Below are positions 38,998 through 59,320 of a DNA stretch of 64,000 nucleotides, piece by piece. The position numbers and the translations under genes are program-made. Every line of letters begins with the position of its first letter. The stretch's first letter is position 1. This DNA is from Candidatus Omnitrophota bacterium (GTDB lineage: Bacteria > Omnitrophota > Gorgyraeia > Gygaellales > Profunditerraquicolaceae): NCBI GenBank assembly GCA_028716245.1, contig JAQUQW010000001.1:40793-104792 (forward strand). The letters run 5' to 3'. A model generated the notes under the pieces. The model did no database searches and was not told the origin of the DNA. It saw only the letters and a program-made list of their open reading frames with translations.

Positions 38998-39916
38998 GTG
39001 TTTGGAATTGGATTATCCGGATTTTGAGATAATTATCCTTCCGGATAAAGCTTTCGCTAGGGGACTGTCCCCGAAGGGGGCTGTCCCCATAAAAGTAATT
39101 CCAACCGGTAATCTTAAGCCCGCTGACAAACGCGATATCGGTTCCAAACACGCCAAAGGTGAGATCATCGCCTTTATCGATGATGATGCTTATCCGGTTA
39201 AAGATTGGCTTAAATCTGCTATAGTAAATTTCTCAGATCCAGAAGTGGCCGCAGTCGGAGGCCCGGCAATAACCCCGCCGGATGATACCTTAAGCCAACA
39301 GGCAAGCGGCAAGATTTATTCATCACTTATGGTCAGTGGGAATTTTGTTTACCGCTATGTTCCTAAAGTAAAGAGGACAGTTGATGATTTGCCAAGCTGC
39401 AATTTTATTGTGCGTAAGGATGTAATTGAAGAACTGGGAGGTTTTAATACAAGCTTTTGGCCCGGAGAAGACACAAAGCTATGCCTTGATATTGCGCATA
39501 AGTTAGGCAAGAAGATTATCTATGATCCGGCTGTTCTGGTTTTTCATCATCGCCGCACAGTGTTTATGGCTCACTTGAAGCAAATCGCTAATTATGCTCT
39601 GCATCGGGGATATTTTGTTAAGAAATTTCCGGAGACATCCTTAAAACTATCATATTTTATCCCCAGTATATTTGTCGCAGGTTTAATCTTTGGTCCGGTT
39701 GTTGGATTATTGTCCTATCCGGCTAAGTTATTGTATCTTGTTTGTGCAGTTTTATATTTAACAATAGTTTTTATATCAAGCTTATCAGGGACTAGGGACT
39801 ATCCCCGAAGGGGACTGTCCCTAAGTTTTATGGTTTTCTCAGGTATTGTTCTCACGCATATTACTTATGGTATTTTTTTTATCAAAGGTTTGTTGGCTAG
39901 AGGGTTAAAAGAATGA
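38933..39916 (+). CDS. Glycosyltransferase family 2 with C-terminal TM helices, carrying two REP1 insertions
   Basis: GT-A DxD-like region IAFIDDDAY. Insertions GLSPKGAVP and a degenerate copy at 39788-39822. Confidence 0.7.
   Translation: MIVSIIIAVKTWQKNLEECVAKCLELDYPDFEIIILPDKAFARGLSPKGAVPIKVIPTGNLKPADKRDIGSKHAKGEIIAFIDDDAYPVKDWLKSAIVNFSDPEVAAVGGPAITPPDDTLSQQASGKIYSSLMVSGNFVYRYVPKVKRTVDDLPSCNFIVRKDVIEELGGFNTSFWPGEDTKLCLDIAHKLGKKIIYDPAVLVFHHRRTVFMAHLKQIANYALHRGYFVKKFPETSLKLSYFIPSIFVAGLIFGPVVGLLSYPAKLLYLVCAVLYLTIVFISSLSGTRDYPRRGLSLSFMVFSGIVLTHITYGIFFIKGLLARGLKE
39060..39088. repeat. REP1 copy 3 (GGGGACTGTCCCCGAAGGGGGCTGTCCCC) in frame in the GT2 gene
   Basis: Encodes RGLSPKGAVP. One substitution, A to G, relative to the consensus. 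Confidence 0.85.
39788..39822. repeat. Degenerate REP1 copy 4 (GGGACTAGGGACTATCCCCGAAGGGGACTGTCCC) in frame in the GT2 gene
   Basis: The first unit is disrupted and the second is intact. It encodes TRDYPRRGLSLS in frame. Confidence 0.7.
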
Positions 39917-41418: not shown

Positions 41419-41423
41419 TTATT

Positions 41424-42263
41424 ATGATTGATGTTTCGGTAGTAATTACGACCAGGAACGAAGAGAAAAACATAGGGAACTGTCTGGATTCGATAAATAG
41501 GCAGGATTATCCTCGGGATAAAATAGAAGTTATTGTAGTCGATAATAATTCTACGGATAATACACAGGAGATAGCTAAGAGATACAATTGCCAATTGTAT
41601 CTGTATGGGCCTGAGCGTTCTGCCCAGCGTAATTTTGCAGCGCATAAGGCAATTGGGGGGTTTATTTTGTTTTTAGATGCGGACATGGCGATTTCAGAAG
41701 GCTTGATATCAGAGTGTGTGCAAAAGTGTAGACTTGATCATCTAGGGTCGCTTTATATTCCTGAAAGGATTACCGGGAATGGTTTTTGGATTAATGTCCG
41801 GGATTTCGAAAGAAGTTTTTATAACGGTACGGTTATTGATTGCGTTAGATTTGTTCGTAGGGAAAATTTTCTTGAGATCGGTGGATTTGACGAGAATCTT
41901 ACTGGGCCTGAAGACTGGGATTTCGATAGGCGGATAAGGGAGAAATATACCGTAGGAATTATTAAATCTTGTATCTATCATCATGAAGGCGTATTTAACT
42001 TAAAGAGGTATCTGTTAAAGAAAACGTATTATGGTTTTTCTTTCCAAAAATATAAAAATAAATGGGGTAGTTCTGATCCGATTATAAAGAAGCAATTTGG
42101 TTTTTTATATAGATTTTTCGGAGTTTTCTTAAGAGAGGATGGATGGATGAAACTCCTGATGCATCCTATTCTGACTCTAGGTATGTATTTATTAAGGTTT
42201 TCGGTGGGTTCAATATATTTAACGAAAACGGCCAAGATTTATTTTAAGGAGAAGAACGGTTGA
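41424..42263 (+). CDS. Glycosyltransferase family 2
   Basis: VSVVITTRNEEKNI, VVDNNSTD and LDADM motifs. Confidence 0.75.
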   Translation: MIDVSVVITTRNEEKNIGNCLDSINRQDYPRDKIEVIVVDNNSTDNTQEIAKRYNCQLYLYGPERSAQRNFAAHKAIGGFILFLDADMAISEGLISECVQKCRLDHLGSLYIPERITGNGFWINVRDFERSFYNGTVIDCVRFVRRENFLEIGGFDENLTGPEDWDFDRRIREKYTVGIIKSCIYHHEGVFNLKRYLLKKTYYGFSFQKYKNKWGSSDPIIKKQFGFLYRFFGVFLREDGWMKLLMHPILTLGMYLLRFSVGSIYLTKTAKIYFKEKNG

Positions 42264-42493: not shown

Positions 42494-43192
42494 ATGGGCA
42501 AAATCACCAGAGTATTAATAGTTTTAATTTGTTGTTTGTTAACAATCTCTCTTATAGGTTGTGTTAAGCATTCTAAAAAAAATCACACACCTGCGTTTAT
42601 GGGTAGGCAGGTAGCATCTCCTCAAATAGCATATGTTGGAGATTCTTTGACTTTAGGTTATGGTGGGAATCACCCATACGATTATTACATTAAGCTCCCC
42701 GGTTGGAATGGGCAAACGATAACTTCATTAACTATTGCTGTAGCTGGTTTCCAAATATCAGATATGTATCATAGCTCAGACGATAAGCTTAATTCTATAT
42801 ATAACTATGATTCGGGATTAAATATCGTTGTTATATGGGGGGGGACTAATGATCTTTGGTATGGTGTTACTCCAGCACAAGCTTATTCTTACTTGAGAGA
42901 GTTTTGTCAACGCCAAAGAAGATTAGGATGGAAGGTTTTAGTAATGACAATGGTTTCACGAATTAATATTGATTCTCAGAAAAACCAATACAATGTTTTA
43001 ATCCGCAATAACTGGACTAAATTCGCTGACGGAATAATTGACATTGCCAGAGATATCAATATTGGCGCTGATGGAGCTTATTCCAATAAGGTTTATTTTA
43101 ATGCTGATGGAATTCATCTTACTGATGCAGGATACGCAATTATAGGTTCTATAGCTCAAACTACAATTACCGATTTTGTAATGAAACAATAA
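42494..43192 (+). CDS. SGNH/GDSL hydrolase family lipoprotein
   Basis: Lipobox LIGC. GDSL block YVGDSLTLG. Block III VIWGGTNDL. Confidence 0.7.
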   Translation: MGKITRVLIVLICCLLTISLIGCVKHSKKNHTPAFMGRQVASPQIAYVGDSLTLGYGGNHPYDYYIKLPGWNGQTITSLTIAVAGFQISDMYHSSDDKLNSIYNYDSGLNIVVIWGGTNDLWYGVTPAQAYSYLREFCQRQRRLGWKVLVMTMVSRINIDSQKNQYNVLIRNNWTKFADGIIDIARDINIGADGAYSNKVYFNADGIHLTDAGYAIIGSIAQTTITDFVMKQ

Positions 43193-43201: not shown

Positions 43202-43762
43202 ATGATACTTAAAAAAAAGAATTTAATTCAGATTTGTCAAAGCTGCTATAACAAAATAATCTTTAGAATCTCTTTGATAAGGGCAGGATTTTGGAAGTTA
43301 TTTATGAAAAGAATGGGGAAAAAGGTTTATATTATGAATTCATGTATGATTGGTTCTCCTTCAGGGATTGAGATTGGAGATCATGTTTGCATTAATCATC
43401 ATACTACTATTTCCGGAATAGGTTCGTTAAAGATTGGCAGTTTTGTTATGATAGGTCCAAATTGTAATATTTTAACCGCAAACCATGGTTTTAGTGATCT
43501 GGGTAAGCCGATGATGTTTCAAGATATAGCCATTGGTTCGGTAGAGATAGGTGATGATGTGTGGTTAGGCGCTAATGTGGTTATATTGCCAAATGTTAAA
43601 ATCGGCCGGGGCGCTATTGTTGGGGCAAATGCCGTTGTCACTGAGGATGTACCTGCATTTGCGATAGTGGGCGGAGTTCCGGCTAGGCTTATCAAGTATA
43701 GATTTTCTCAAGAAGGTATGGAAAAAGCAAAGAATGAAACATTTCTAAACGATAGTTATTAA
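43202..43762 (+). CDS. Left-handed beta-helix (hexapeptide-repeat) sugar O-acetyltransferase. The true start is probably internal, near 43296.
   Basis: Hexapeptide repeats [31 protein letters not shown]. The N-terminal 30 aa of the ORF look non-coding. Confidence 0.7.
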
Positions 43763-43772: not shown

Positions 43773-45182
43773 ATGAAAATTTTACTTATTCAACCTGAAT
43801 ATAAAGATACCTGGGCATCTCCACCTTTAGGATTAGGCTATATTGCTGCGGCTTTGGAAGGGGCAGGACATAAAATAGTATTAGTTGACCATACCTTAGA
43901 GCCTGTTTCAAACGAAGAATTTAAGGTACAGTTAGTTGCTTATAAACCTGATTTTGTAGGTATATCTTTAATGGTACGCGCTCTTCCACAGGTACGTTCG
44001 CTGATTCAACAGATTAAAGAAGCTGGAGATTACCCGATTGTGATTGGTGGTCCGCAGCCGACAATTGCACCTGAATTTACTCTCCGTTATACAAGAAGTG
44101 ATTTTGCCGTATTAGGAGAGGGAGAGCAAACTATTGTAGAGCTGGCGGCTGTTTTAGCGTCAGGAAGCAAAAATTACCATAATGTCCCCGGCATTGCGTT
44201 TAATGATGGCGATAAAGGTGTCGTGATTAATGCTAGCCGCGAATTCATCAAAGACCTTGATTCTATAGCTTTTCCAGCTTGGCATCATATCCCGCCTTCA
44301 AAATATAATTTGCAGCCAGCGCTTACACCGGTAAAGGAAAGACCGATCGCTCCTCTTATAACTACACGTGGTTGTCCTTATAAGTGTAACTTTTGCGGTG
44401 GTCCTCTTATGTGGAAACGTTCTTTTCGAATGCGCAGCGCCAAGAACATAATAGATGAAATTGAATTATTGATGCGTGAATATGGGGTAAAGCAGATTTT
44501 TCTTTCCGATGATAATTTTACAATGCAAAAAAGCCATGCACTTGCCATGTGCAAAGAGATATGTGCACGTAAGATTAAGATTCTCTGGGCCTGTCCAAAT
44601 GGTATCCGAATCGATAAGGTTGATGATGGGTTACTTAAAGCTATGCGTGAGGCAGGATGTTATCTGGTTGGTTTCGGGATAGAATCTGGTAGCCAGGAGA
44701 TACTCAACCGCGCCCAAAAACAACTTAATTTATCTCGCGTAGCGCAAGTGGTAAAAATGGCAAATAAACATGACATATTGACTTATGGTTTTTTTATTAT
44801 TGGGCTTCTTGGTGAAACCAAGAAAACAATTCGTCAGACTATTGATTTTGCCAAGAAACTTCCTTTAGACAGGGCATGGTTTAATGTGTTAGTGCCTTAT
44901 CCAGGGACAGAAATATTTGATTTATATTCTAAGGGAAAACCTTATAATGAAATTGAATGGGGCAAGGAAGATGCAACCTCCGGTATGATTGCTAAGGGGA
45001 TACATTATGATGGTTTAAGTGGTGAGGATTTAGTTTATTGGCAGAGAAGGGCATTAAGGGAGTTCTATCTTACCAATTTCCGGCGTTTTTTTAGCGTGAT
45101 TAAAAATATGAGCTGGGGAAGTTTAAAGACGCTTATGAAAACAAGCTTTTTTAAGCGTTGGTTAAGGCATAAAAATGACTGA
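43773..45182 (+). CDS. B12-binding domain radical SAM enzyme (class B)
   Basis: TRGCPYKCNFCGG (CxxxCxxC). N-terminal cobalamin-binding-like domain. Confidence 0.8.
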   Translation: MKILLIQPEYKDTWASPPLGLGYIAAALEGAGHKIVLVDHTLEPVSNEEFKVQLVAYKPDFVGISLMVRALPQVRSLIQQIKEAGDYPIVIGGPQPTIAPEFTLRYTRSDFAVLGEGEQTIVELAAVLASGSKNYHNVPGIAFNDGDKGVVINASREFIKDLDSIAFPAWHHIPPSKYNLQPALTPVKERPIAPLITTRGCPYKCNFCGGPLMWKRSFRMRSAKNIIDEIELLMREYGVKQIFLSDDNFTMQKSHALAMCKEICARKIKILWACPNGIRIDKVDDGLLKAMREAGCYLVGFGIESGSQEILNRAQKQLNLSRVAQVVKMANKHDILTYGFFIIGLLGETKKTIRQTIDFAKKLPLDRAWFNVLVPYPGTEIFDLYSKGKPYNEIEWGKEDATSGMIAKGIHYDGLSGEDLVYWQRRALREFYLTNFRRFFSVIKNMSWGSLKTLMKTSFFKRWLRHKND

Positions 45183-46338
45183 AAGTATTTTATTAGATAG
45201 ATTACGTAGTCTAAAAGTAGCTATTGTTACGCATGTTTATGCAACCGGTCCAGCGCAAGAGTTGGAGGTTTATCTTAAGGATAAAGTAGCCTCATTAATC
45301 TTTATTGGGCATCCTTTTAAATTCGCAGCAGATATCCGTTCGTTTTGTAAAATATATCAGAAAGGTGTAATTAAAAAGCAAACTAAGGCTTACGGTTTTA
45401 GATTGCCTGAGTTGCTTATGTATTTCAAAGATCTCTTATATACTTTTTATTGGGTTATTTATTACCAAGGTAAGTTGGATATTTATTTTGGCGTGGATCC
45501 ATTGAACGCCTTTGTGGGGATTATTCTAAAGAAGTTAGGTAAGGTTGAAAAAGTAATTCTCTACACGATTGATTATACTCCGAAAAGATTTGAAAATAAG
45601 TTTTTGAATTGGGTCTATCATCGAGTAGACAGTTTTTGCGTTCAAGAAAGCGATTTTGTCTGGAATTTATCAGCTCGGATGGCAAAAGCAAGAATGAAGA
45701 AGGGGATAAAAAGATACGAACATCAGATGGTCGTTCCGATAGGAGTAAATTCTGGTAAAATTGAAGGGTCGAGGAAAGAGAGGGTTAATCGCAATTATTT
45801 TGTTTATATGGGGCATCTGAGGAAAAATCAGGGCCTTGAATTGGTTGTTGATGGTTTTAGTGATATAATAAAAGTGGTTCCGGATGCTAGGTTAGTAATT
45901 ATAGGAGGAGGATGCTTAGAGGCGGGAATTAAGAAGATAGTGGTAGAAAATAATTTATCAACTTACGTTGAATTTAAAGGATATCTCCCTGAACATAGTG
46001 ATGTCGAAAATATTCTTGCAACTTGCGGTATTGGTTTAGCTTTATATGAACCAAGCCCTGACAGTATTACCTGGTATACGGATCCCAGTAAGCCAAAACA
46101 ATATATGGCAAGCGGTTTGCCGGTAATTATTACTGCGGTACCTGAGATATCGGAAGAGATAAAGTCGAGGGGTCTAGGTATCGTTATTAATTATAATAGG
46201 GAGAGTTTTGTAAACGGGGCGCTGAGACTTTTACGAGACGATAAACTCTATTTTGAATGTAGGAAGAATGCAACGGAATTTGTTTCAAGTATGCGCTGGG
46301 ATAATATTTTTAGTAAAGCGCTGTCTAGTTGTTTATAG
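45175..46338 (+). CDS. Glycosyltransferase family 4 (GT-B)
   Basis: C-terminal GT1/GT4 region with EX7E-like conservation (YMGHLRKNQGLELVV...IIGGG). 387 aa. Confidence 0.7.
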   Translation: MTESILLDRLRSLKVAIVTHVYATGPAQELEVYLKDKVASLIFIGHPFKFAADIRSFCKIYQKGVIKKQTKAYGFRLPELLMYFKDLLYTFYWVIYYQGKLDIYFGVDPLNAFVGIILKKLGKVEKVILYTIDYTPKRFENKFLNWVYHRVDSFCVQESDFVWNLSARMAKARMKKGIKRYEHQMVVPIGVNSGKIEGSRKERVNRNYFVYMGHLRKNQGLELVVDGFSDIIKVVPDARLVIIGGGCLEAGIKKIVVENNLSTYVEFKGYLPEHSDVENILATCGIGLALYEPSPDSITWYTDPSKPKQYMASGLPVIITAVPEISEEIKSRGLGIVINYNRESFVNGALRLLRDDKLYFECRKNATEFVSSMRWDNIFSKALSSCL

Positions 46339-46361: not shown

Positions 46362-47405
46362 ATGAAGAAAGCTTTGATCACAGGGATTACGGGGCAGGAT
46401 GGTTCATATCTTGCTGAATTTTTATTAAGCAAAGGCTATCAGGTGCATGGAATTATCAGAAGGGCAAGTACCTTTAATACTGGAAGAATCGATCATATCT
46501 TTAAGGATCTACATGAACCCAAGGTACATCTTTTTCTTGAATATGGCGACCTTTCTGATGGTGAGCAGGTTTCAAACATCGTTTATAATATAAAGCCGGA
46601 TGAGATATACCATTTGGGTGCTCAAAGCCATGTGCGCGTAAGTTTTGATATGGCGGAGTATACAGGAAATGCCACTGCCTTAGGTACTACCAGGATCCTA
46701 GAGGCGGTAAGAAGAAGCAAACATAGTGTAAAGTTTTATCAGGCATCTTCAAGTGAGATGTTCGGTAACGCCTTGCCTCCGCAGGGTGAAGAAACGCCAT
46801 TTATCCCCAGAAGTCCTTATGCCTGCGCTAAGGTTTATTCATATTGGATGACTAAAAATTACCGTGAAGGCTATAATATTTTTGCTGCTAATGGTATTTT
46901 ATTCAATCATGAGTCACCAAGAAGAGGAGAAACATTTGTTACCAGAAAAATTACGCGGGCTCTGGCAAATATTATTGCCGGTAAACAAAAGAAACTTTAT
47001 CTCGGTAATCTTAAGGCTAAGAGAGACTGGGGTTACGCTCCGGAATATGTTGAGTTGATGTGGAAAATCTTACAACAAAAAAACTCTCAAGATTATGTAA
47101 TCGGTACTGGAGAATCGCATTCTGTGGGTGAATTTGTAACTCTTGCTTTTGATTATGCCAGATTGAATTATAAGGATTATTTGGGAATCGATGAACGTTA
47201 TTTTAGGCCTACGGAAGTCGAAAATTTGATTGCTGATACGGCTAAGGCTAAGAAGAGTTTAGGCTGGAAACCAAGGATTAAATTCGAAGAATTAGTAAAA
47301 ATAATGGTAGATGCAGATATGCGTCATATTGGTTTAAAGCCGATTGGCCAGGGAGATAAAATATTGCGCAATAAATTTCCTGATAGGTGGTGGGGTATAG
47401 ACTAG
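46362..47405 (+). CDS. gmd: GDP-mannose 4,6-dehydratase
   Basis: [29 protein letters not shown] catalytic Y/K. Overall Gmd length. Confidence 0.9.
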
Positions 47406-49568: not shown

Positions 49569-52163
49569 ATGCGTAAGAAATCATTTTTTTCAAGAGTTCC
49601 CTCTTTGATTACAAAATCTCCAGCTTTTCCATTTCTGGTCATTCTACTTATCATTTTAGCAATATCGATATTAAATAAATTTCCTAAAGGGCGTATCTTT
49701 TGTTATAGCGATTTCTTTCAATTTGTAAATTTTGAAGGTGCAATAAATTGGTTTACTAATGTTTTTGTAAACTATGGAGAAGGGAATTTAAATTTCTTAT
49801 ATGTTCCGTTCTATTATTCATTTCTCGGCTTTATCCAGAATATTATCGGACAGAAGTATATGTCTGTAGCCTATTTTTTCATTTTCCTCGGAGGCAGTTT
49901 CCTCTCTTTTTATATAGCAACCATTTTTTTTGGGCTTGATAAAAAAACAGATAAATTTACAATACTTTGTTTCTCGCTACTCTACTCACTAAATTCATAC
50001 ACAGCTATAAGATTTGAACTGCCGTGTATTTATTTCCTTCCGTATATTTTTATTCCGGTTTTATTTGCTACTCTTCATGCTTATTTTATGGATGTTCATC
50101 TTTTGAACAGGAACCTGCTCTGGTGCGCAGTAGCCATGTTGATAAGTACCGTTTGCTGGGCAGGTCCACCTTATTTTGTCGCTTATACTATATTAACTTC
50201 TATCTACATTATTTTCATCTCTATTTTTGATAGAAGATATAATTTTGCAATCTTAGGCAAAAAAATTTTTCTCTATTTCTTCGTATTTATCAGCAGTTTT
50301 GCGATGTATATTTTTACCTGGCCGGCGATATTGCTCGGTTACAATGCTGCTGTTAAGGCAGGAAGATATCAGGTAAATAATCTTGAGTGGATATATTCAC
50401 AATCATTACCCATGTTGGATGTTTTTTCATTCCGATCTAGATTCTTTGGCTTGGTTAACATTAATAAAGTAAGTTTCCTATTTTTTATTATGCTAAGTTT
50501 TTCCTTATTTCTGTTTTTAGCGGTAAGTTTCTTGTCCTCTCGGAAAAATACTTATAAAAGGATTATTATCATATTCGGGTTTATGGTATTGGTTATAGGT
50601 TTTTTCTTAAATAAAGGAAAAGGCTTTAGCTGGGAAGCAGCTGCACATTCCATATTTGCCAGTAATATTATTTTATGTTCACTGCGGAGTTTTGACAAAA
50701 CTCTAATTTTTCTTCCTTTCATGTTGCTGATGCCTTATTGTTTATATAGTGCAAATGCAAAACATAAAATCTTACCCTGGGTTATGTTGGCTTCTACACT
50801 TATTTTTTGTTGGCCCTTTATCAATGGTAATCTATACAAAAAATATTATGCCGTGGATCAGGGGAAGGATTATTTGACAAGCCGATACGCTTCATTGGTT
50901 AAAATCCCACAGGAATATTTTGACATAGCCAGCGCAACTAACCGCCTAAAAAGTGATTTCAGGATTCTTAGCGTTCCGTGGTTTTTGGATAATCCGGATC
51001 TGAAAGGTTGGCTAATATCTCCAAAATGGAAGAATATGGGAGCAAACCCCCTAATACAATATTTTAATCATCCTTTTTCTCAAATGAGCGAACCTAGTGC
51101 ATTCAGGAGCTGGAATTATGGAGTTACTTGGGGTGAGGAGTCTAGTAATGATGAATCTTTTTGGATAATACCGCTTTCGGGACTGATTAATGCTAAGTAT
51201 TTAATTTTTCAGAAAGACGTGTCGGATAAATTCGTAAACCAGGCTGCTCCTAAGATAGCTTCCTATAAAGATAAGGGGGCTATCAAGCTGTTAGTTTCTA
51301 ATCCCTACTTTGATTTCTTTGAAGTTTCTGATGCTTATTTCTTACCGCATTTTTATGTAGCAGATAAGCTTTACTGTGTTAAGAATGCCAAAAGCATACC
51401 TTCCATTCTAAAGAATGTCCCACTTGGAGAAAAGGCAGGAATTTTAGAATCGAATAACGAAAGTACTAACGAGCAAGCTTTAAACAATAGAGAAGTCGTT
51501 ATTGAATACAAACAGATTAATTCCGCGAAATATAAGGTAAAATTCCACGGCATTACTAAATCTTTTCCTTTTATTTTTTCCGAATCGTTTGATCCTTTTT
51601 GGAGAATATACCCTAAGCGTTATACTGAGGCCGAAGTTAGGAATATCGATACCTACCAAATTTTTAAGGGCAATGAAGCATTTCAGGCTTCCAGAGAAGA
51701 ATTTGGCACTTATCTAAAGGAAAATTGGGTTTCCGAGTTGGGTAATGGAAGCGTAAAGAATAGAAGAACAACTCTGTGGTTATCCTCTAATTTGCTGAGA
51801 AGCTTTGAGGAGCAATATCGCATAGACTTTATTTCAAAGAAAATTAAAGGGACTATTCAAAATGATAATATTTCAAAAGGTAGTTTTTACGATACATATT
51901 CTCTTAGGGCGATTGATGATAAATTTCATAGAATAGTAAACGGCTACGCTAACTTTTGGCAGATTGATTTGGGTTACCTAAAAAATAATTTCCCAGAAGA
52001 CCTAAAGAACAACAGTGACGGTTCGTATGACCTCGAGGTAATTATCGAGTTTTGGCCTCAAAAAGTTTTATACATAAGCCGGGTTTATGTTATCATCTTT
52101 TCGTTTATCGTTTTGGTCTTATTGGCCTGGTCTTTTATTATAAAAAGGAAGAATTTTATTTAA
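49569..52163 (+). CDS. Large polytopic membrane protein (GT-C-like glycosyltransferase or polymerase candidate) with a C-terminal extracytoplasmic domain
   Basis: 864 aa. The first ~400 aa are very hydrophobic with many TM helices. The C-terminal ~450 aa is soluble, followed by a terminal TM helix. Very AT-rich. Confidence 0.35.
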   Translation: MRKKSFFSRVPSLITKSPAFPFLVILLIILAISILNKFPKGRIFCYSDFFQFVNFEGAINWFTNVFVNYGEGNLNFLYVPFYYSFLGFIQNIIGQKYMSVAYFFIFLGGSFLSFYIATIFFGLDKKTDKFTILCFSLLYSLNSYTAIRFELPCIYFLPYIFIPVLFATLHAYFMDVHLLNRNLLWCAVAMLISTVCWAGPPYFVAYTILTSIYIIFISIFDRRYNFAILGKKIFLYFFVFISSFAMYIFTWPAILLGYNAAVKAGRYQVNNLEWIYSQSLPMLDVFSFRSRFFGLVNINKVSFLFFIMLSFSLFLFLAVSFLSSRKNTYKRIIIIFGFMVLVIGFFLNKGKGFSWEAAAHSIFASNIILCSLRSFDKTLIFLPFMLLMPYCLYSANAKHKILPWVMLASTLIFCWPFINGNLYKKYYAVDQGKDYLTSRYASLVKIPQEYFDIASATNRLKSDFRILSVPWFLDNPDLKGWLISPKWKNMGANPLIQYFNHPFSQMSEPSAFRSWNYGVTWGEESSNDESFWIIPLSGLINAKYLIFQKDVSDKFVNQAAPKIASYKDKGAIKLLVSNPYFDFFEVSDAYFLPHFYVADKLYCVKNAKSIPSILKNVPLGEKAGILESNNESTNEQALNNREVVIEYKQINSAKYKVKFHGITKSFPFIFSESFDPFWRIYPKRYTEAEVRNIDTYQIFKGNEAFQASREEFGTYLKENWVSELGNGSVKNRRTTLWLSSNLLRSFEEQYRIDFISKKIKGTIQNDNISKGSFYDTYSLRAIDDKFHRIVNGYANFWQIDLGYLKNNFPEDLKNNSDGSYDLEVIIEFWPQKVLYISRVYVIIFSFIVLVLLAWSFIIKRKNFI

Positions 52164-52176
52164 GTTTGCACAGAAA

Positions 52177-53397
52177 ATGAACTATAATCGCATTTGTCTT
52201 AGCACTTATATAAATACAGTTGATAACGAAGCCTATACGCTTTTTGGGCCCATCCAAAACATTACAGGATTTCTTTGTTTGAGGTTCTTTGATATTTATA
52301 TGATTAGTCAGCCTATGCCGGGTGAGTTTGATTTGACTCCGACATTAACCCTCTATCGAGGTGGAAAGCCTTTATGGATGAAGAAAATGCCGAAATTATG
52401 GCAATTGTTGTACTGGAGAAGTAATAAGAAGTTAACATCGGGTCAGACGGTAATTAGGCTTAAATTACGCGATTTTATTTCAAATTTCTATTTTATCCTG
52501 TTCTGTATTCCTCATAAGCTAGATTTGTTTATTGGTGTCGAGAGTATCAATGCTTTAAGCGCGGTTCTCTTGAAGAGGCTAGGCTGCATCCGAACTGTTT
52601 TATATTTTTCCAACGACTATCATCCTAATAGATATGCTAGGTTAAAAAACTGGATTTTTCTTAAGTTGGATGAGATAGCCGCCTATAGGTGTGATTACAT
52701 CTGGATGATGAATCCGAGGATACATAAATCTAGGCTGGAGAGGGGGCTTGACCCATTGAAGCTTGCACCTCATTTTATTATCCATGGTGGGCTTCCATTT
52801 TTCACTGGAGAGCCTTTAGCTATAAATGAAAGGCAGATGAATAGAATTGTTTATGCTACGCGGGCAGGTCATCTAGGCTTAGGGATTGTTCTGGAAGCTT
52901 TTTCGGTAGTAATTATGAAGCATCCCGATATAAAGCTTTATATAACTGGACACGCTGATAAGGAAGAGCCAAGAATGTGTTCGCTCATAGAGAAGTTAAA
53001 GATAGCTAGGAATCTCATCTTTACCGGTTTTATCAAAGAGGAGGAGTTGAATTACCTTATAAAATATTCCTATATCGGACTTGCAATATGGTCCTGTAGC
53101 GCTGCTGCATCGGCAACATACGGCGATCCGGAGAAAATCCGGCGCTATTTCCATTTTGGGTTACCTGTAGTTTCGACAGTAAATGCTTTTACATCTGAAG
53201 TCATCAGTAAGTATGGTGCAGGAATAGTCGTTGACGATAGAGTTGAGTCTGTTACCAAGGCTATTCTGACTTTGCTTGATGATAAAGATTTATATACAAA
53301 GTGCGCTCAGGCATCGGCAGAACTCGGAAAATTCTACAAGGAGCATAATCCGCTTGATGATTCGATAAAAGATCTAAAGAAGAAAAATTTGTTTTAG
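52177..53397 (+). CDS. Glycosyltransferase, GT-B (family 1/4-like)
   Basis: C-terminal GT-B region around GHLGLGIVLEAF...ITGHADKEE. Confidence 0.5.
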   Translation: MNYNRICLSTYINTVDNEAYTLFGPIQNITGFLCLRFFDIYMISQPMPGEFDLTPTLTLYRGGKPLWMKKMPKLWQLLYWRSNKKLTSGQTVIRLKLRDFISNFYFILFCIPHKLDLFIGVESINALSAVLLKRLGCIRTVLYFSNDYHPNRYARLKNWIFLKLDEIAAYRCDYIWMMNPRIHKSRLERGLDPLKLAPHFIIHGGLPFFTGEPLAINERQMNRIVYATRAGHLGLGIVLEAFSVVIMKHPDIKLYITGHADKEEPRMCSLIEKLKIARNLIFTGFIKEEELNYLIKYSYIGLAIWSCSAAASATYGDPEKIRRYFHFGLPVVSTVNAFTSEVISKYGAGIVVDDRVESVTKAILTLLDDKDLYTKCAQASAELGKFYKEHNPLDDSIKDLKKKNLF

Positions 53398-53450
53398 GTA
53401 TTATACTGAATAGTTGCGTCGTATTAATGGAAGTAGTATAATTAAAAATT

Positions 53451-54263
53451 ATGGTTTCTCCACTGTCAACAATTTATAATTTTGTCGGAAATATCCCTTA
53501 TAGGATACATCCAAGTTTACATTTTCAGATGTATAAATTTTTTGTAAATGTTGGATTAAAAAGTCTAACCCAGGATGCCGTTGTTAAATTTGCGATTAAG
53601 TACTTAAAAAAAGGCGATTGCGTGATAGATATTGGGGCAAACCGTGGAACTTACAGCTATTCTATGCTCAAGGCTGTAGGGGAAAGGGAGGGGGCGGTAT
53701 ATTCTTTTGAGCCGAATCCGTTGATCGCTAAGCAGCTAAGGAAAAATCTGAAACATTCAAATGTTGTAATCGAGAACTTTGCTCTCTCGAGTACATCGGG
53801 AAATAGAGTCTTTTATAGGCATACTAAAGGTTGCGGTCCTACGAGTTCTTTAGAGTTTTTTGATATATTGGATAAATCAGGAGAACTGGAAGAAACAGAA
53901 GTTAAGTGTGTAACTCTGGATGCATTTTGTCAGTCTCATAAGCTATCGCCAAATTTAATTAAAATTGATGTAGAGGGGCATGAATTCAATGTTTTTAAAG
54001 GAGCGAAGTCGACCATCCAGGGGTATCGTCCTTATATCATATTTGAATTCATAGAAGAATTTTGGCAGGAGAAGCATATCAAGGAAGTATTTGAATTCTT
54101 AGCGCCTGTTTACGATTTGATCCGTATTGAGGATGGCGCTAACGCAATAGAAGCCTATTTGGATTATAAACCCCATTGTTATTTCGATTTTAGGAAATCA
54201 AAGGTTGTGAATATTGGGTGTATCCCGCGGGGTGGATACGATACCGTTTTAGGAAGGATATAA
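53451..54263 (+). CDS. FkbM-family SAM-dependent methyltransferase
   Basis: DIGANRGTYS SAM motif I. FkbM-like length. Confidence 0.75.
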   Translation: MVSPLSTIYNFVGNIPYRIHPSLHFQMYKFFVNVGLKSLTQDAVVKFAIKYLKKGDCVIDIGANRGTYSYSMLKAVGEREGAVYSFEPNPLIAKQLRKNLKHSNVVIENFALSSTSGNRVFYRHTKGCGPTSSLEFFDILDKSGELEETEVKCVTLDAFCQSHKLSPNLIKIDVEGHEFNVFKGAKSTIQGYRPYIIFEFIEEFWQEKHIKEVFEFLAPVYDLIRIEDGANAIEAYLDYKPHCYFDFRKSKVVNIGCIPRGGYDTVLGRI

Positions 54264-54267
54264 AATT

Positions 54268-55281
54268 ATGAAAAAGAGAGTGTTGATCACGGGTATAACC
54301 GGGATGGTTGGATCGCATCTTGCCGATTTTTTACTCGAAAATAGTGATTGGGATATTTACGGTATGTGTCGTTGGCGTAGCCCGCTGGATAACGTGGAAC
54401 ACCTTTTGTCCAGGGTGAACAAAAAGGATCGCTTATATTTTATTTATGGAGAACTTGGCGATTATATTTCGTTACAGAATGCGGTTAAAGAGAGTAGTCC
54501 GGATTATGTTTTTCATCTTGCGGCGCAAAGTTATCCGCTGACAAGTTTCACTTCTCCACTTCAAACTCTGGATACGAATATCTTAGGAACAGAGCGCCTG
54601 CTTGAAGCCTTACGTAAATGCAAAGGGATTGATCCCGTTATTCATGTATGTTCTTCTTCGGAAATCTTCGGCAGAGTAAGTAAAGAAAAGCTACCAATCA
54701 ATGAGAGTTGCTCATTCCATCCGGCTTCTCCTTATGCGATCTCGAAAATCGGCACCGATCTGATTGGTAAGTTTCATGCTGAGGCTTATCAGCAAAAAGT
54801 AGTGGTAACCAGGATGTTTACTCATACTGGCCCCAGGAGGGGGGATGTTTTTGCTGAATCTACTTTCGCTAAGCAAATTGCAATGATTGAACGCGATCTT
54901 GTTCCACCGGTTGTAAAAACGGGTAATCTTAATTCTATGCGTACCTGGTCTGATGTACGTGATGCGGTCAGGGCTTATTATATGCTGGTAACAATTAACC
55001 CGGTTCCGGGGGAGTGTTATAACATCGGAGGTTCGTTTTCTTGTTCTGTTGGCGATATGCTGAAGCATCTTATTTCGATCTCAACGCGCAAAAATATTAC
55101 AGTTGAAACAGATAAAGAGAGGTTGCGTCCTATTGATGCGGATTTGCAGATTCCGGATACGAGAAAATTCAGGAAACATACGGGATGGGAACCAAAAATA
55201 ACTTTTGAGAAAACGATGCAGGATTTATTGAACTATTGGCGGGAAAAATTTAGCTCCGGGAAAATGTATCTGACCCGATAA
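54268..55281 (+). CDS. Gmd/Rmd-family NDP-sugar dehydratase/reductase (GDP-4-keto-6-deoxy-D-mannose reductase-like)
   Basis: VLITGITGMVGSHLADFLL and YAISKIGTD motifs. It is a paralog of gmd. Confidence 0.7.
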   Translation: MKKRVLITGITGMVGSHLADFLLENSDWDIYGMCRWRSPLDNVEHLLSRVNKKDRLYFIYGELGDYISLQNAVKESSPDYVFHLAAQSYPLTSFTSPLQTLDTNILGTERLLEALRKCKGIDPVIHVCSSSEIFGRVSKEKLPINESCSFHPASPYAISKIGTDLIGKFHAEAYQQKVVVTRMFTHTGPRRGDVFAESTFAKQIAMIERDLVPPVVKTGNLNSMRTWSDVRDAVRAYYMLVTINPVPGECYNIGGSFSCSVGDMLKHLISISTRKNITVETDKERLRPIDADLQIPDTRKFRKHTGWEPKITFEKTMQDLLNYWREKFSSGKMYLTR

Positions 55282-55286
55282 TTTTC

Positions 55287-56294
55287 TTGATAAGATTGGA
55301 AGATATCTTTAGGAAAAATATGTTAGTTAATCGTAATACTATGAAAGAATTAAACATCACTCTTTATAAAACTATGTATATGATCCGTAAGGTCGAAGAA
55401 AAGATTCAGGCTCATTACCTTGAAAATGAGATGAAAACTCCTATGCATATGTCTATGGGGGAGGAAGCTATAGCTGCCGGTGTTTGCCATGCCCTGAAGC
55501 CAGAGGATCAAGTTTTGGGTTCTTACAGAAGCCACGGTATCTATATCGCTAAGGTGCAGGAGACTGACAAATTTTTTGCCGAAATGTACGGAAAGGTTAC
55601 GGGAACATCTCAAGGCAAGGCTGGTTCTATGCATTTGCTAGCTCCGGAGGCAGGCCTGGTTTGTACTTCAGCTATTGTGGGTAGCTCTATCCCGGTGGCT
55701 ATCGGATTTGCTTTTGCCAATAAGCAAACTAAAAATGGTCGGATTACAACCGTATTTTTTGGGGATGGCGCTGTTGATGAAGGAGTGTTTTGGGAGAGTT
55801 TGAATTTTGCCTGTTTAAGTAAACTTCCGGTTGTATTTATTTGTGAAGATAACGGTTTTGCTGTGCATAGCCCTGTCAGTGAAAGGCATGGCTATGGTTC
55901 TATCGCAGAAATCGTGCGTAAGTTTGATTGTAGTGTTTTTCAGAGTGATTCTTCAGATGTGCAAGTCATATACAATCTTACCAAGAACGCGCTGAAAGAA
56001 ATGTCGAATAACAATAAGCCAGTTTTTCTTTATTTTAAATACTATCGTTATCTTGAACATGTTGGGGTATTTGATGATTTTAAGGCAGGTTACAGGCCAA
56101 AGGAAGATTTTGAGAAATGGCTGAAGGTTGACCCAGTCTGTATGCAGCGCAAGAAACTTGTAAGGTTAATAAACGAAGGAAAGGTAGCGTCATTAGAAAA
56201 AGAAATAGAGGATCGGATAAATTTAAGTAAGACTAGGGCCCAGCAGGCTGATTTTCCCGATGCAAGAATTGCCTGTGAGGATATTTATATATGA
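55287..56294 (+). CDS. Thiamine-diphosphate-dependent dehydrogenase E1 component, alpha subunit
   Basis: TPP-binding GDGAVDEG. Motif GSYRSHG. E1 alpha-like length. Confidence 0.8.
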   Translation: MIRLEDIFRKNMLVNRNTMKELNITLYKTMYMIRKVEEKIQAHYLENEMKTPMHMSMGEEAIAAGVCHALKPEDQVLGSYRSHGIYIAKVQETDKFFAEMYGKVTGTSQGKAGSMHLLAPEAGLVCTSAIVGSSIPVAIGFAFANKQTKNGRITTVFFGDGAVDEGVFWESLNFACLSKLPVVFICEDNGFAVHSPVSERHGYGSIAEIVRKFDCSVFQSDSSDVQVIYNLTKNALKEMSNNNKPVFLYFKYYRYLEHVGVFDDFKAGYRPKEDFEKWLKVDPVCMQRKKLVRLINEGKVASLEKEIEDRINLSKTRAQQADFPDARIACEDIYI

Positions 56295-57334
56295 AAAGAA
56301 TGATTACATATCGTGAGGCGCTGAACGAGGCCATAATCGGGGAAATGAGGCGTGACCCAAGAGTATTTATGTATGGGATAGATGTTGCGGATCATAAGCG
56401 TACTTTTGGGAGTGGTAATGGAATTTTAGAAGAGTTTGGGAATTCCCGTTGTTTTAGCACTCCTTTGTCCGAGTGTTCTATGACTGGCTTAGGGCTTGGA
56501 GCGGCTTTAAGCGGATTACGTCCGATTCATGTTCATATGCGAGTTGATTTCTTGATTTTAGCCATGAATGAGCTCACTAATATGATTGCCAGTTTTTCTT
56601 ATGGTTCCTGCGGGAAGATGAAAGTGCCTATGGTTATAAGGGCGGTAATTGGCCGTGGCTGGGGCCAATCCTGGCAGCATAGCAAAACATTGCATTCCTG
56701 GTTCGCCCATATTCCGGGATTAAAAGTTGTTATGCCTTCCAGGCCAAGTGATGCCAAAGGTATGCTCATTGCTGCTATACGAGATGATAATCCGGTTATT
56801 TTCATAGAACATCGCTGGCTATATGATGTCGTAGGGGAAGTTCCTGAAGAAGCTCTAACCGAGCCTCTTGTGGGAAGCAGAGTAATCCATTCGGGAAAAG
56901 ACGCAACAGTTCTTGCAGTTTCTTGGATGAACGTAGAAGCGTTGCAAGCAGCGGAAGTATTAGAGAAACACGGCATAAGCCTTGAAATAATCGATGCGCG
57001 GTCGATCTCTCCGTTTGACGATACAACAATTATAGATTCGATCAAGAAGACCGGGCATTTAATAGTGGCTGATTATGATTGGATTCACTGTGGATTTGGT
57101 GCCGAAGTAGCTACGCGGGTCTATGAAAAATGCATGAGAATACTGAAGTCACCGATAACCCGGATTGGTTTCGCCGAAGCACATTGCCCATGTTCGCGTC
57201 CGCTTGAAGTAAAATTCTATCCTTCAGCCATAGATATTATCCGATCAGTCGAAAAAAAACTTGGCCTTTCCGAGATTGACCTAGCGCAGGAAGAGTTCTA
57301 TTCGTATGAAAAGAAGTTCAAGGGCCCATTTTAG
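56291..57334 (+). CDS. Thiamine-diphosphate-dependent dehydrogenase E1 component, beta subunit (transketolase-like)
   Basis: Transketolase pyrimidine-binding and C-terminal domains. It is translationally coupled to the alpha subunit. Confidence 0.8.
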   Translation: MKRMITYREALNEAIIGEMRRDPRVFMYGIDVADHKRTFGSGNGILEEFGNSRCFSTPLSECSMTGLGLGAALSGLRPIHVHMRVDFLILAMNELTNMIASFSYGSCGKMKVPMVIRAVIGRGWGQSWQHSKTLHSWFAHIPGLKVVMPSRPSDAKGMLIAAIRDDNPVIFIEHRWLYDVVGEVPEEALTEPLVGSRVIHSGKDATVLAVSWMNVEALQAAEVLEKHGISLEIIDARSISPFDDTTIIDSIKKTGHLIVADYDWIHCGFGAEVATRVYEKCMRILKSPITRIGFAEAHCPCSRPLEVKFYPSAIDIIRSVEKKLGLSEIDLAQEEFYSYEKKFKGPF

Positions 57335-57352
57335 TTAGCTACCCATATAGTA

Positions 57353-59320
57353 ATGCAAAAACCTCAAAAGATAAAAGTTGGCTTAGTCCAGGTAGGGGAA
57401 AATTTCAGTGGCCAGTATTATCTTCCATATTCAGTCGGACTTTTGCAGGCTTATGCCTTGAAAAGATTAAAGAAACCCCGAGACTACATTTTTTCCCTGC
57501 CCCTCTATAAAAGAGAGCCATTTGAAAAAATAGATTTACACTTTAGAGACGCAGATATTATATTTTTTAGCGTCTATATGTGGAATTATAATTTTAGTTT
57601 AGAGATAGCAAAAACAATCAAAATTAATCATCCTAAATGTTGTATTGTTTTCGGCGGGCCGCAGATACCGGAGTCTTCAGAGAGATTGGAGATTATGTTG
57701 CGTAGATACCCGTTTGTCGATATAGCTTGTTATGGAGAAGGAGAAAATCCATTTGTAGAGATTCTGGAAAGTTTCCGGAAGAAAGATTGGCCAGGAGTTC
57801 CTTCTATCGCTTATATAAATACGGAGAAAAACTTTGTCAAAAATAAAAGCGGAAATCGAATCTCTGATTTGGATCAAATTCCCTCGCCATATTTAAGCGG
57901 AGTCTTTGGATCCTTAATGGAATCTAGCGCTGAAGGGGTATGGTCGGTTATGTGGGAGACCAACCGTGGTTGCCCGTTTTCTTGTTCTTATTGTGCCTGG
58001 GGTAAGGATTCTAAGAGAGGTATTTATAAATATGATCTGGGTCGGTTATTTGAAGAGATAGACTGGTTTAGTAAGAACAAAATTGAGTTTATCTTTTGTT
58101 GCGATGCGAACTTCGGGTTATTTAAAGAAAGGGATATGCAGATTGTCCAGAAAGTAGCTGAGAATAAGAAGCAATACGGTTATCCTAAAGCATTCTCCGT
58201 ACAGAGTACTAAGAATGCTACGCGTACAATTTTTGAGCTGCAAAAAGAATTAAATATCGCCGGTCTGCAAAAAGGAGTAAACTTAGCATTGCAGTCCGTA
58301 AATAATCAAACCTTAAAAAGCGTTAATCGTAGTAATATTTCACCCGGCCAGTTCCGGGATCTGCAGAAGATGTTTACGGATGCCGGTATTGCAACTTTCT
58401 CTGATATGATTTTAGGTTTGCCCGATGAATCGTACCAAACTTTTACCGGGGGGGTTTCCGATGTGATTGAAGGAGGCCAGTATAACAGAATTCAGTTTAT
58501 AAATCTAGCCGTGCTTGAGAATACTGAAATGTCCTCTCCGGAATACATTCAGAGATACGGGTTGATACTCAAGGAATGTAAAATGGTTTCACATCATACT
58601 AGTATTAGCTCTGATAACGAAATTCCGGAAACTCAAATCTTGGTTGTCGGCACCAGTACAATGCCTAAAGAGGATTGGGTTAAGACACGTATTTTTTGCT
58701 GGATGATCTCTTTGCTGCATTTTGATAAATTGCTCCAAATCCCGCTGATTATTTTAAACAAATCTTATGTATTAAACTATAAGGAGATAATGGGTTGGTT
58801 TTTAGCCAGTGGCAAGGAATATCCTATTATTTCCAGTATTGTTTCGCGCTTTAATGAAAAAGCCTCAATGATCCAATTCGGCGATACCGAATTTATTGCT
58901 TCTCCTGATTGGCTAAATATTTATTGGCCGGCAGATGAGTTCATTTTTATAAAATTGTGCAGCGAAAACAATTTATCGAAATTTTATGAAGAAGCGAGGA
59001 GTGTTATTCTTAGCGGTTTAAAGAAGAGCAAAATACCGATAGATGAAGACTTGCTTGATGATGCGCTCGCTTTTAATTGCAATTCAATAAAACAGCCCTT
59101 TATAACTGAAAATAAAAGAATCACGCTAAATTATAATCTGCCTGAGTTCTATCAGTCTGCCCTGGTTGGGAGGCAGATCTCGTTATCAAGAGGAAGTTTT
59201 AATTATGATATTGTGCGTACTCAGGATAAATGGAGTTCATGGCTGGATTGGTGCAAAGAGGTAGTCTGGTTTGGAACAAAAAAGGGGAATTATTTATATC
59301 CTTTTATAAAAACTAATTAA
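57353..59320 (+). CDS. B12-binding domain radical SAM enzyme (class B), with a long C-terminal extension
   Basis: NRGCPFSCSYCAW (CxxxCxxC). N-terminal B12-binding-like region. 655 aa. Confidence 0.8.
   Translation: MQKPQKIKVGLVQVGENFSGQYYLPYSVGLLQAYALKRLKKPRDYIFSLPLYKREPFEKIDLHFRDADIIFFSVYMWNYNFSLEIAKTIKINHPKCCIVFGGPQIPESSERLEIMLRRYPFVDIACYGEGENPFVEILESFRKKDWPGVPSIAYINTEKNFVKNKSGNRISDLDQIPSPYLSGVFGSLMESSAEGVWSVMWETNRGCPFSCSYCAWGKDSKRGIYKYDLGRLFEEIDWFSKNKIEFIFCCDANFGLFKERDMQIVQKVAENKKQYGYPKAFSVQSTKNATRTIFELQKELNIAGLQKGVNLALQSVNNQTLKSVNRSNISPGQFRDLQKMFTDAGIATFSDMILGLPDESYQTFTGGVSDVIEGGQYNRIQFINLAVLENTEMSSPEYIQRYGLILKECKMVSHHTSISSDNEIPETQILVVGTSTMPKEDWVKTRIFCWMISLLHFDKLLQIPLIILNKSYVLNYKEIMGWFLASGKEYPIISSIVSRFNEKASMIQFGDTEFIASPDWLNIYWPADEFIFIKLCSENNLSKFYEEARSVILSGLKKSKIPIDEDLLDDALAFNCNSIKQPFITENKRITLNYNLPEFYQSALVGRQISLSRGSFNYDIVRTQDKWSSWLDWCKEVVWFGTKKGNYLYPFIKTN

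Follow-up and report, generated by a model that had tools for sequence, protein, structure and literature searches.

In a stretch of 64,000 nucleotides from a metagenome-assembled genome (MAG) of Candidatus Omnitrophota (contig JAQUQW010000001.1; hereafter the window), we identified a gene cassette that combines GDP-heptose genes with a thiamine diphosphate (ThDP)-dependent enzyme of the E1 alpha/beta type and a radical S-adenosylmethionine (SAM) protein, rSAM-3. Judging from homology and gene context, we lean towards a cassette that would turn GDP-heptose into a ThDP-branched, rSAM-3-methylated sugar for a surface glycan. This 'branched heptose' cassette, which comprises positions 54268–63768 and an HddC-like gene just downstream, is the most informative of several separable modules in the segment studied, in which we see the variable portion of a cell-surface glycan locus of the Wzx type, encoded on one strand. 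The initial annotation of this DNA had reported three class B radical SAM enzymes (here rSAM-1 to rSAM-3), an FkbM methyltransferase and an E1 alpha/beta pair among NDP-sugar enzymes and glycosyltransferases, and had predicted a C-methylated and/or branched-chain glycan. Its observations were confirmed, as an open reading frame (ORF) scan reproduced every ORF coordinate on the + strand, while Pfam and NCBIfam agreed on the three class-B-architecture proteins, the methyltransferase and the pair. Its interpretation was partly supported; going beyond it, we find the branched sugar to be, by homology, most probably a GDP-heptose derivative, and the cassette to be widespread.

Gene content and distribution of the cassette

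From 18.9 kb onwards, every gene of the window is encoded on the + strand, with short intervals or overlaps between neighbors that range from −4 to 38 bases within 54268–63768 (Table 1). The first gene of the cassette carries the public label of a GDP-mannose dehydratase, but is an orthologue of GDP-D-glycero-D-manno-heptose 4,6-dehydratase and matches Gmd structures at no more than 138 bits (138 for Gmd 1DB3). The last is a GHMP kinase whose best PDB matches are 3K85 (142 bits), 4N3O and the WcbL entries 4USM and 4USK. The public contig L001 runs past the window end and there encodes the HddC-like guanylyltransferase, a class-I methyltransferase, an Acyl_transf_3 protein and two unknowns. Window proteins are identical to public records MDD5476684, -686 and -687 (649-kb contig of a MAG labelled Candidatus Omnitrophica/Omnitrophota), with an annotation that is unspecific or misleads: 'GDP-mannose 4,6-dehydratase', 'transketolase C-terminal domain-containing protein' and 'radical SAM protein'.

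The E1 pair bears the ThDP-binding motif GDG...EDNG and is closely spaced with its neighbors: 38 bases separate the dehydratase stop from the E1 alpha ATG at 55320, the two E1 genes overlap by 4 bases, and 18 bases separate E1 beta from rSAM-3. The public call of E1 alpha starts at this ATG (324 aa), and the mechanical ORF starts at 55287 and, for the last short-chain dehydrogenase/reductase (SDR), at 61799 are probably too long. Both subunits scored below the NCBIfam cut-offs for pyruvate dehydrogenase (PDH), E1 alpha with 252 bits vs 394 (TIGR03182) and E1 beta with 305 bits vs 321 (NF006667). The initial annotation had named nearby E2/E3 genes as evidence against a role in sugar branching; no E2, E3 or lipoyl domain was found in the ORFs annotated across the window or on L001, and no E2- or E3-like family recurred in the 160 related loci surveyed below. 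The TPP_enzyme_N/M/C architecture of YerE-type single-chain enzymes was likewise absent from the locus. The pair is a candidate C2-branching enzyme for a 4-keto sugar.

By its closest matches, rSAM-3 is a homologue of the methylcobalamin C-methyltransferases of the TokK/CysS/KedN5 family, in line with the C-methylation capacity proposed at the outset. Residues 22–477 aligned with TokK (7KDX) at 272 bits (E=7e-80), CysS (9N1B) followed with 182 bits, and the top NCBIfam match was the KedN5 subfamily NF033712 (model positions 62–397 of 624) with 245 bits vs a cut-off of 700, which sets rSAM-3 in a clade that is related to KedN5 but separate from it. Two residues, W77 and W216, correspond to W76 and W215 of TokK and are invariant in 20 orthologues from different phyla; in TokK, W76 occupies the lower axial position, where radical methylases typically have a hydrophobic residue, and W215 is located between cobalamin and cluster (PMC12931638). 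In a neighbor-joining tree of rSAM-3 orthologues, subclades tracked the neighboring genes: one, which includes the window and its sister L088, is associated with the SDR at 59348 (SDR59348) and E1 alpha/beta, a second with SDR59348 and a split transketolase, and a third with an aldo-keto reductase. The neighbors of the rSAM-3 gene in an Elusimicrobia MAG (L065) are 57–84% identical to window 49569–63768, while rSAM-3 itself is only 43% identical there and has an aldo-keto reductase gene after it in place of SDR59348, a pattern that suggests cassette-level swapping of rSAM-3 subtypes.

Relatives of both enzymes are numerous, with at least 586 pattern matches to rSAM-3 in species-representative genomes and at least 583 metagenome stretches for E1 beta. 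We mapped the window proteins onto the best 80 rSAM-3 loci from species-representative genomes (all MAGs, 43–56% identity), which came from many bacterial phyla as well as Methanoperedens, Methanoregula and Woesearchaeota, and calculated percentages from the 38 loci with ≥8 kb on both sides. A second survey covered 80 metagenome loci encoding E1 beta orthologues (61–85% identity), with percentages from the 23 loci having ≥6 kb on both sides. Overall, the cassette was found in Omnitrophota, Elusimicrobiota, Nitrospirota, Planctomycetota, Desulfobacterota, Patescibacteria, Proteobacteria, Methanoperedens and Woesearchaeota.

Around rSAM-3, an Fcl-like SDR was nearly universal (97%), and a ThDP enzyme of any kind was present in 82% of loci (E1 alpha/beta in 39%, a split transketolase in 29%), alongside HddA (79%), a DegT-like gene (66%), the heptose dehydratase (63%), HddC (61%), a further class-B-like radical SAM gene (47%) and an RmlC-like gene (37%). 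The view that rSAM-3 is independent of ThDP enzymes was overturned by the split transketolases in loci without E1. Around E1 beta, all loci contained E1 alpha, 91% the heptose dehydratase, often as a dehydratase-E1 alpha-E1 beta trio, 91% an Fcl-like SDR, 70% an RmlC-like gene and 61% HddA; the dehydratase lay directly beside 31 of 93 E1 alpha-E1 beta pairs. Because of the 91% co-occurrence, the lack of E2/E3 and the sub-cut-off PDH scores, we consider the E1 pair to be functionally tied to the product of the heptose dehydratase. An rSAM-3 orthologue occurred in only 17% of these E1 loci, and rSAM-3 therefore appears to be an optional tailoring enzyme, itself nearly always needing a heptose and ThDP context.

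Several variations on the cassette were observed. Clustering of unassigned ORFs from the rSAM-3 loci revealed recurrent families absent from the window, namely an aldo-keto reductase, a classical SDR, a NUDIX protein, the split transketolase, a TylF methyltransferase and PhyH. A class-I SAM methyltransferase family of ~310 aa, also missing from the window, was found in 31 of 80 E1 beta loci and in 10 rSAM-3 loci (representative L109:1887-2825; L011:12984-13913) and may provide an alternative, non-radical methylation step. Five cassettes (L003, L074, L078, L079 and L151) contain two E1 alpha/beta pairs of different subtypes and another (L006) an E1 pair plus a split transketolase, which suggests two successive ThDP-dependent C-C bond formations.

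Table 1 Features of the glycan locus, with positions in the window unless stated otherwise.
Feature	Position	Strand	Basis
Wzx-like flippase (Polysacc_synt), first gene of the Omnitrophota-conserved anchor block	36959–38206	+	PF01943 55 bits
Two GT2 glycosyltransferases of the anchor block	38203–38997, 38933–39916	+	PF00535 91 and 60 bits
rSAM-1, 501 aa	39913–41418	+	Radical_SAM E=7e-16, class-B-like architecture
Variable tailoring block: GT2, GDSL esterase/acyl-hydrolase, hexapeptide O-acetyltransferase	41424–42263, 42494–43192, 43202–43762	+	Pfam; WcaF/WbbJ-like (NCBIfam)
rSAM-2, class B radical SAM, 469 aa	43773–45182	+	Radical_SAM 84 bits, B12-binding 82 bits, CPYKCNFC
GT4 paired with rSAM-2	45175–46338	+	PF00534; same pairing in L082 and L084
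Gmd	46362–47405	+	495 bits vs cut-off 415
3-dehydrase of the pyridoxamine phosphate (PMP) type ('DegT')	47410–48630	+	E1 3-dehydrase 3BCX 184 bits, ColD 137 bits
Fcl/ColC-like epimerase-reductase	48623–49567	+	Fcl 413 bits vs cut-off 500
864-aa polytopic membrane protein	49569–52163	+	No Pfam or NCBIfam match
GT4 (GT4b)	52177–53397	+	Pfam
FkbM-family SAM methyltransferase	53451–54263	+	PF05050 84 bits; TIGR01444 109 bits vs cut-off 37.7; weak RfbT resemblance
GDP-D-glycero-D-manno-heptose 4,6-dehydratase orthologue	54268–55281	+	371 bits, full length, to C. jejuni 7US5
E1 alpha	55287 (TTG) or 55320 (ATG) to 56294	+	PF00676 176 bits
E1 beta	56291–57334	+	Transket_pyr (PF02779), Transketolase_C (PF02780)
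rSAM-3, 655 aa	57353–59320	+	Radical_SAM 48 bits, B12-binding 33.5 bits (gathering 32.1), CPFSCSYC
Fcl-like SDR (SDR59348)	59348–60337	+	Pfam/NCBIfam
Fcl-like SDR	60343–61287	+	Pfam/NCBIfam
RmlC-like 3,5-epimerase (cupin)	61306–61809	+	Pfam/NCBIfam
SDR	61799 or 61814 to 62782	+	Public gene call starts at 61814
HddA-like heptose-phosphate GHMP kinase	62779–63768	+	Four best PDB matches all heptose kinases
HddC-like guanylyltransferase	L001 16496–17143, just beyond window end		135 bits to HddC, 146 to mannose-1-P guanylyltransferase

A proposed route and its alternatives

Onto the gene identities, homologies and synteny statistics shown above, we place a five-step route, for which we infer the acceptor position, the donor, the site and number of methylations and the order of steps. 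HddA and HddC, together with GmhA and GmhB encoded elsewhere, would make GDP-D-glycero-D-manno-heptose, which the dehydratase at 54268 would convert to GDP-6-deoxy-4-keto-heptose, as its strong homology indicates. From synteny and literature precedent, E1 alpha/beta would then decarboxylate pyruvate and place a C2 (acetyl) unit on the C4 carbonyl, yielding a tertiary-alcohol branch. Based on homology and conserved active-site residues, rSAM-3 would move a methyl group, possibly several, from methylcobalamin to an sp3 carbon, either in the new branch or at heptose C6/C7. Finally, the Fcl-like SDRs and the RmlC-like epimerase would reduce and/or epimerise the product, which glycosyltransferases would then use. 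In related cassettes, a histidine typical of 3-dehydrases was found in 42 of 62 DegT-like genes, which indicates 3,6-dideoxy-4-keto intermediates, i.e., the type of acceptor classically used in ThDP branching, as in yersiniose.

Several observations weigh against this route. The HddA-like and HddC-like proteins fall far under the NCBIfam equivalog cut-offs (167 vs 600 and 135 vs 300 bits, respectively), and the sole 3-dehydrase of the window lies in the Gmd module, outside the heptose cassette. Searches with E. coli sequences, which suffice for detection only, revealed no GmhA or GmhB in the window or, within ±10 kb, in most related loci; the two were detected in 4 and 8 of the 80 rSAM-3 loci, respectively, and also adjoin the cassette in several E1 loci. 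The likeness of the E1 pair to known sugar-branching E1-type enzymes (alphaKADH2, such as AviB, Plm8/9 and KbDH, see below) is one of architecture and gene context. Lastly, rSAM-3 is scarce in E1-centered loci, and six rSAM-3 loci (L008, L017, L019, L032, L062 and L068) lack heptose and ThDP genes, so that the substrate of rSAM-3 need not be a branched heptose. Three of these six (L008, L017 and L019, from Elusimicrobia and Nitrospirae MAGs) combine 5–6 class-B-like radical SAM genes with a NUDIX hydrolase and SDRs, and may represent a different pathway very rich in radical SAM enzymes.

One or more of the radical SAM proteins, chiefly rSAM-1 and rSAM-2, could instead perform non-methylating chemistry on a sugar or glycolipid, i.e., AprD4-like deoxygenation, HpnJ- or OxsB-like ring contraction, or epimerisation. 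We disfavor this only slightly overall, and non-methylating radical chemistry is a serious possibility above all for rSAM-1. All three proteins exceeded the gathering score of PF04055, and rSAM-2 and rSAM-3 also that of the B12-binding domain, as expected from the 'class B' label they had been given; rSAM-1, with a B12-binding match of 27.6 bits under the gathering score of 32.1 (PF02310), is class B by architecture only. Its motif, CWWGKCTFC, is a Cx4Cx2C (C234, C239, C242) rather than CxxxCxxC and is invariant in 12 orthologues, its top family match is HpnJ (138 bits), and its gene directly follows two GT2 genes and a flippase gene, an order that resembles HpnI/HpnJ logic. An AlphaFold model of rSAM-1 (pLDDT 72, pTM 0.78) resembled QCMT, OxsB and TsrM in fold comparison, and equally the cobalamin-independent AprD4, so that non-methylating enzymes were matched as well as methylases. 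For rSAM-2, AprD4 was among the nearest solved structures (94 bits; range 94–110 bits). However, all such matches are far under the family cut-offs, and rSAM-2 has a strong B12-binding domain and, as its best solved relative, the methylase QCMT (9CCB, 105 bits).

Two further readings of rSAM-3 itself appear unlikely to a similar degree. In the first, the pathway still leads to a branched sugar, but rSAM-3 would methylate the heptose backbone, e.g., converting the C7 CH2OH into CH(OH)CH3 to give an 8-deoxy-octose skeleton. rSAM-3 is associated about equally with heptose genes and with ThDP enzymes (79% and 82%), and one fully flanked locus (L052) contains heptose genes and rSAM-3 without a detectable ThDP gene. 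There is also precedent: GenK and Fom3 both act on a primary-alcohol carbon, GenK at C6' of gentamicin X2 and Fom3 on CMP-linked hydroxyethylphosphonate. Both belong to the Csp3 methylases (PMC12931638). Nevertheless, the closest characterized relatives of rSAM-3, i.e., TokK, CysS and KedN5, extend alkyl or alkoxy side chains and do not methylate carbinol carbons, and a ThDP enzyme is found in most complete loci. In the second, a ThDP C2-branching enzyme (E1 alpha/beta or split transketolase) and an iterative TokK-like rSAM-3 would act in series on GDP-6-deoxy-4-keto-heptose, the acetyl branch growing one carbon at a time to propionyl- or isobutyryl-type groups. If true, this doubtful but consequential extension would imply that many uncultivated bacterial and archaeal phyla have, in their surface glycans, higher-carbon heptoses of a previously unseen family that are both branched and C-methylated. 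Besides the YerE-like enzymes with their long-chain keto-acids, there would then be a second way, a radical one, to make long-branched sugars.

Returning to a branched and methylated surface sugar as the preferred product, a small-molecule glycosylated secondary metabolite seems improbable. Characterized branching enzymes of the E1 and split-transketolase types do all come from actinomycete antibiotic clusters (PMC12247030), but here a Wzx-like flippase, seven glycosyltransferases, an O-acetyltransferase and an Acyl_transf_3 protein are present with no polyketide synthase, non-ribosomal peptide synthetase or aglycone genes; the locus occupies a conserved Omnitrophota glycan site after the tyrosyl-tRNA synthetase (TyrRS) gene; related loci hold Wzm/Wzt-like ABC exporters; and Omnitrophota are documented to have hypervariable polysaccharide cassettes (bioRxiv 10.64898/2026.06.07.730766). 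That the pair is an ordinary catabolic E1 (of a 2-oxoacid or acetoin dehydrogenase) which just happens to reside in a glycan locus is largely refuted and very improbable, given the lack of E2/E3, the operon-like spacing with dehydratase and rSAM-3, and the orthologues beside a GDP-heptose dehydratase across many phyla, even though the best solved relatives are branched-chain 2-oxoacid dehydrogenase (BCKDH) and PDH E1 subunits, E1 beta is just 16 bits short of its PDH subfamily cut-off, and the catalytic His of YRYLEH is kept. A phosphonate-type (Fom3/Ppd-like) reading of the ThDP and class B radical SAM genes was rejected, as there is no phosphoenolpyruvate mutase and the ThDP enzyme is of the E1_dh, not the Ppd type.

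Comparison with known branching and methylation systems

The initial annotation had likened the E1 pair to yersiniose-type branching enzymes. Its association with an NDP-sugar 4,6-dehydratase held, but yersiniose relies on the single-chain enzyme YerE, and closer precedents are the E1-type alphaKADH2 enzymes, which add pyruvate-derived C2 branches to keto-sugars (PMC12247030 section 2.2; PMC4802897); split transketolases have been proposed to add hydroxyacetyl. Members of alphaKADH2 include AviB1/AviB2 (avilamycin), Plm8/Plm9 (paulomycin), the aldgamycin and kosinostatin enzymes, and KbDH-alpha/beta (kibdelomycin), tested in vitro. Like these, the window pair is a two-subunit E1-type ThDP enzyme without E2/E3, encoded beside NDP-sugar 4,6-dehydratase and ketoreductase genes, and the same chemistry is expected. 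Two differences stand out: the acceptor is predicted to be a GDP-heptose derivative rather than a dTDP-deoxyhexose, and the genes occur where uncultivated bacteria and archaea encode surface glycans, in a subset of loci with a TokK-like radical SAM protein, and not in an actinomycete biosynthetic gene cluster. The known alphaKADH2 and transketolase examples are all from secondary metabolites, the transketolases all from Streptomycetes, and only YerE-like enzymes serve lipopolysaccharide (LPS; PMC12247030).

With YerE/YerF (yersiniose A) and ErwE (erwiniose), the cassette would share the ThDP-dependent attachment of an acyl branch to C4 of a 3,6-dideoxy-4-keto NDP-sugar for a surface polysaccharide, and most related cassettes also include a 3-dehydrase-type DegT. 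YerE and ErwE, however, are single-chain acetolactate-synthase-like enzymes of the decarboxylase superfamily that act on CDP-hexoses, whereas the enzyme here is an E1 alpha/beta heteromer with a GDP-heptose scaffold. Erwiniose or caryophyllose was considered as a product (heptose, C7 methyl and C4 branch) and rejected, since erwiniose is made from a CDP-hexose and a C4 keto-acid via the YerE-like ErwE (PMC9306805). The kinase, guanylyltransferase, 4,6-dehydratase, cupin epimerase and SDR reductases resemble the GDP-6-deoxy-heptose capsule pathways of Campylobacter jejuni and Burkholderia, in which ThDP and radical SAM enzymes are both missing.

rSAM-3 shares with TokK, ThnK, CysS and KedN5 the Rossmann and radical SAM core, the CxxxCxxC motif and both signature Trp residues, while its C-terminal ~180 residues have no match to TokK. 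Its gene context is nucleotide-sugar, as opposed to the carbapenem, cystobactamid or enediyne context of those enzymes. GenK, GenD1 and Fom3, here likened by description only, provide a precedent for cobalamin-dependent radical C-methylation of a sugar carbon or nucleotide-activated substrate, though in secondary-metabolite pathways. To our knowledge, only a few actinomycete antibiotic pathways are known to branch sugars with E1-type ThDP enzymes, and the same holds for the cobalamin-dependent radical C-methylation of sugars.

In the searchable literature, no account of this cassette was found and no paper joined radical SAM enzymes to heptose pathways, but the in-silico survey of Krug et al. 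2024, which lies outside that search, could list some of these loci; nothing relevant was found in the literature searched on cobalamin with nucleotide sugar or on heptose with thiamine. There are precedents for each chemistry, namely branching by alphaKADH2 enzymes, branching by YerE in LPS, methylation of the TokK type and the GDP-6-deoxyheptose pathways. The novelty lies in how these are combined and where: in surface-glycan loci, a ThDP enzyme of the E1 or split-transketolase type is linked to a GDP-heptose dehydratase, with a radical SAM protein of a distinct TokK-related clade as a frequent add-on. If the proposed route is true, uncultivated microbes would have a new class of branched heptoses on their surfaces, and biocatalysis would gain new ThDP carboligases that accept ketones as well as new radical methylases directed at sugars. 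The loci would also offer an expressible five-to-eight-gene system, with GDP-heptose as an obtainable substrate, for the study of TokK-like enzymes outside antibiotic pathways. The cassette is widespread, unannotated and directly testable.

Other modules of the glycan locus

The reported NDP-sugar and glycosyltransferase setting proved to be that of a glycan locus, with Gmd, RmlA, RmlB, Fcl-like proteins, a heptose kinase-like GHMP protein, GT2s and GT4s all recovered. Across the locus, Pfam and NCBIfam assigned three GT2s, two GT4s, the Wzx-like flippase, a GDSL protein, a hexapeptide acetyltransferase and several extended SDRs. Three B12-dependent radical SAM proteins in one such locus had been called exceptional. 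Within ±10 kb of rSAM-3, however, at least two class-B-like radical SAM genes occurred in 23 of 80 loci (29%), at least three in 7, with a maximum of six, and two are also found in other Omnitrophota glycan loci; three is thus at the high end of the range in related loci, but not unique. Nor do the three form one set, as they belong to three modules with different evolutionary histories. Clustering with non-sugar clades had been named as evidence against a glycan role, and all three clades occur in sugar contexts.

rSAM-1 is conserved across its phylum: relatives with 67–85% identity fill >120 database clusters, with named sources nearly all from Omnitrophota, and three other Omnitrophota genomes (L085-L087) share the fixed order PGM, acyltransferase, S1, TyrRS, Wzx, GT2, GT2, rSAM-1, followed by variable glycan genes. 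We read rSAM-1 as part of a phylum-conserved block for initiation and export, a putative role based on this gene order. In the window, 10.9 kb (26074–36959) separate TyrRS from Wzx-GT2-GT2-rSAM-1, which directly follows TyrRS in the three other genomes. This insert starts with an IS200-like Y1 transposase and contains RmlA, an RmlD-like gene, RmlB and two SDRs, as well as an AAA_14/DUF4143 ATPase, an HTH protein, a PLD-like protein and two unknowns. Its features suggest an insertion associated with a mobile element, by which the rml genes were brought in. The reported RmlABD set was borne out for RmlA (473 bits, cut-off 361) and RmlB (398 bits, cut-off 365) and failed for 'RmlD' at 28090 (51 bits vs a cut-off of 224). 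The RmlC-like gene at 61306 was considered as part of the rml genes and placed in the heptose cassette instead.

rSAM-2 orthologues (80, 58 and 51% identity) are all encoded among glycosyltransferases, usually with a GT4 directly downstream, and we read rSAM-2 as a putative tailoring enzyme for another residue, acting alongside its GT4. In the adjacent module, Gmd stood as first annotated, and 'DegT' required revision: it has a His at the position of the Schiff-base Lys (SFYIAH, aligned with SFYPAH of the E1 dehydrase) and is therefore of the 3-dehydrase type, not an aminotransferase. An E1-dehydrase-type [2Fe-2S] cluster was rejected for this protein, in which the CxC is kept but Ala-Ala replaces the upstream Cys pair of the E1 'DCCD', and the locus lacks an E3-type reductase for it; the 3-dehydrase is probably ColD-like. 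Together, Gmd, the 3-dehydrase and the Fcl/ColC-like gene make up what is, by homology, a colitose-like 3,6-dideoxyhexose module of GDP-mannose origin.

Between this module and the heptose cassette lie three further genes. The 864-aa membrane protein has ~10 hydrophobic segments in residues 10–420, a soluble region of ~400 aa and a C-terminal transmembrane segment; it is kept beside GT4b-FkbM in L065 and L088 (57–59% identity), an 861-aa counterpart takes the same position in L082, and it may be a novel polymerase or GT-C-like enzyme. Assignment of GT4b to TIGR04157 ('glyco_rSAM_CFB') was rejected (27 bits vs a cut-off of 400). By family membership, the FkbM protein is probably a sugar O-methyltransferase. 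Elsewhere in the window (3036–3875 and 4609–6295), a small radical SAM protein (279 aa) is encoded close to a glycine-cleavage P-protein gene, followed by a CbiQ/ABC transporter pair of the energy-coupling factor (ECF) type.

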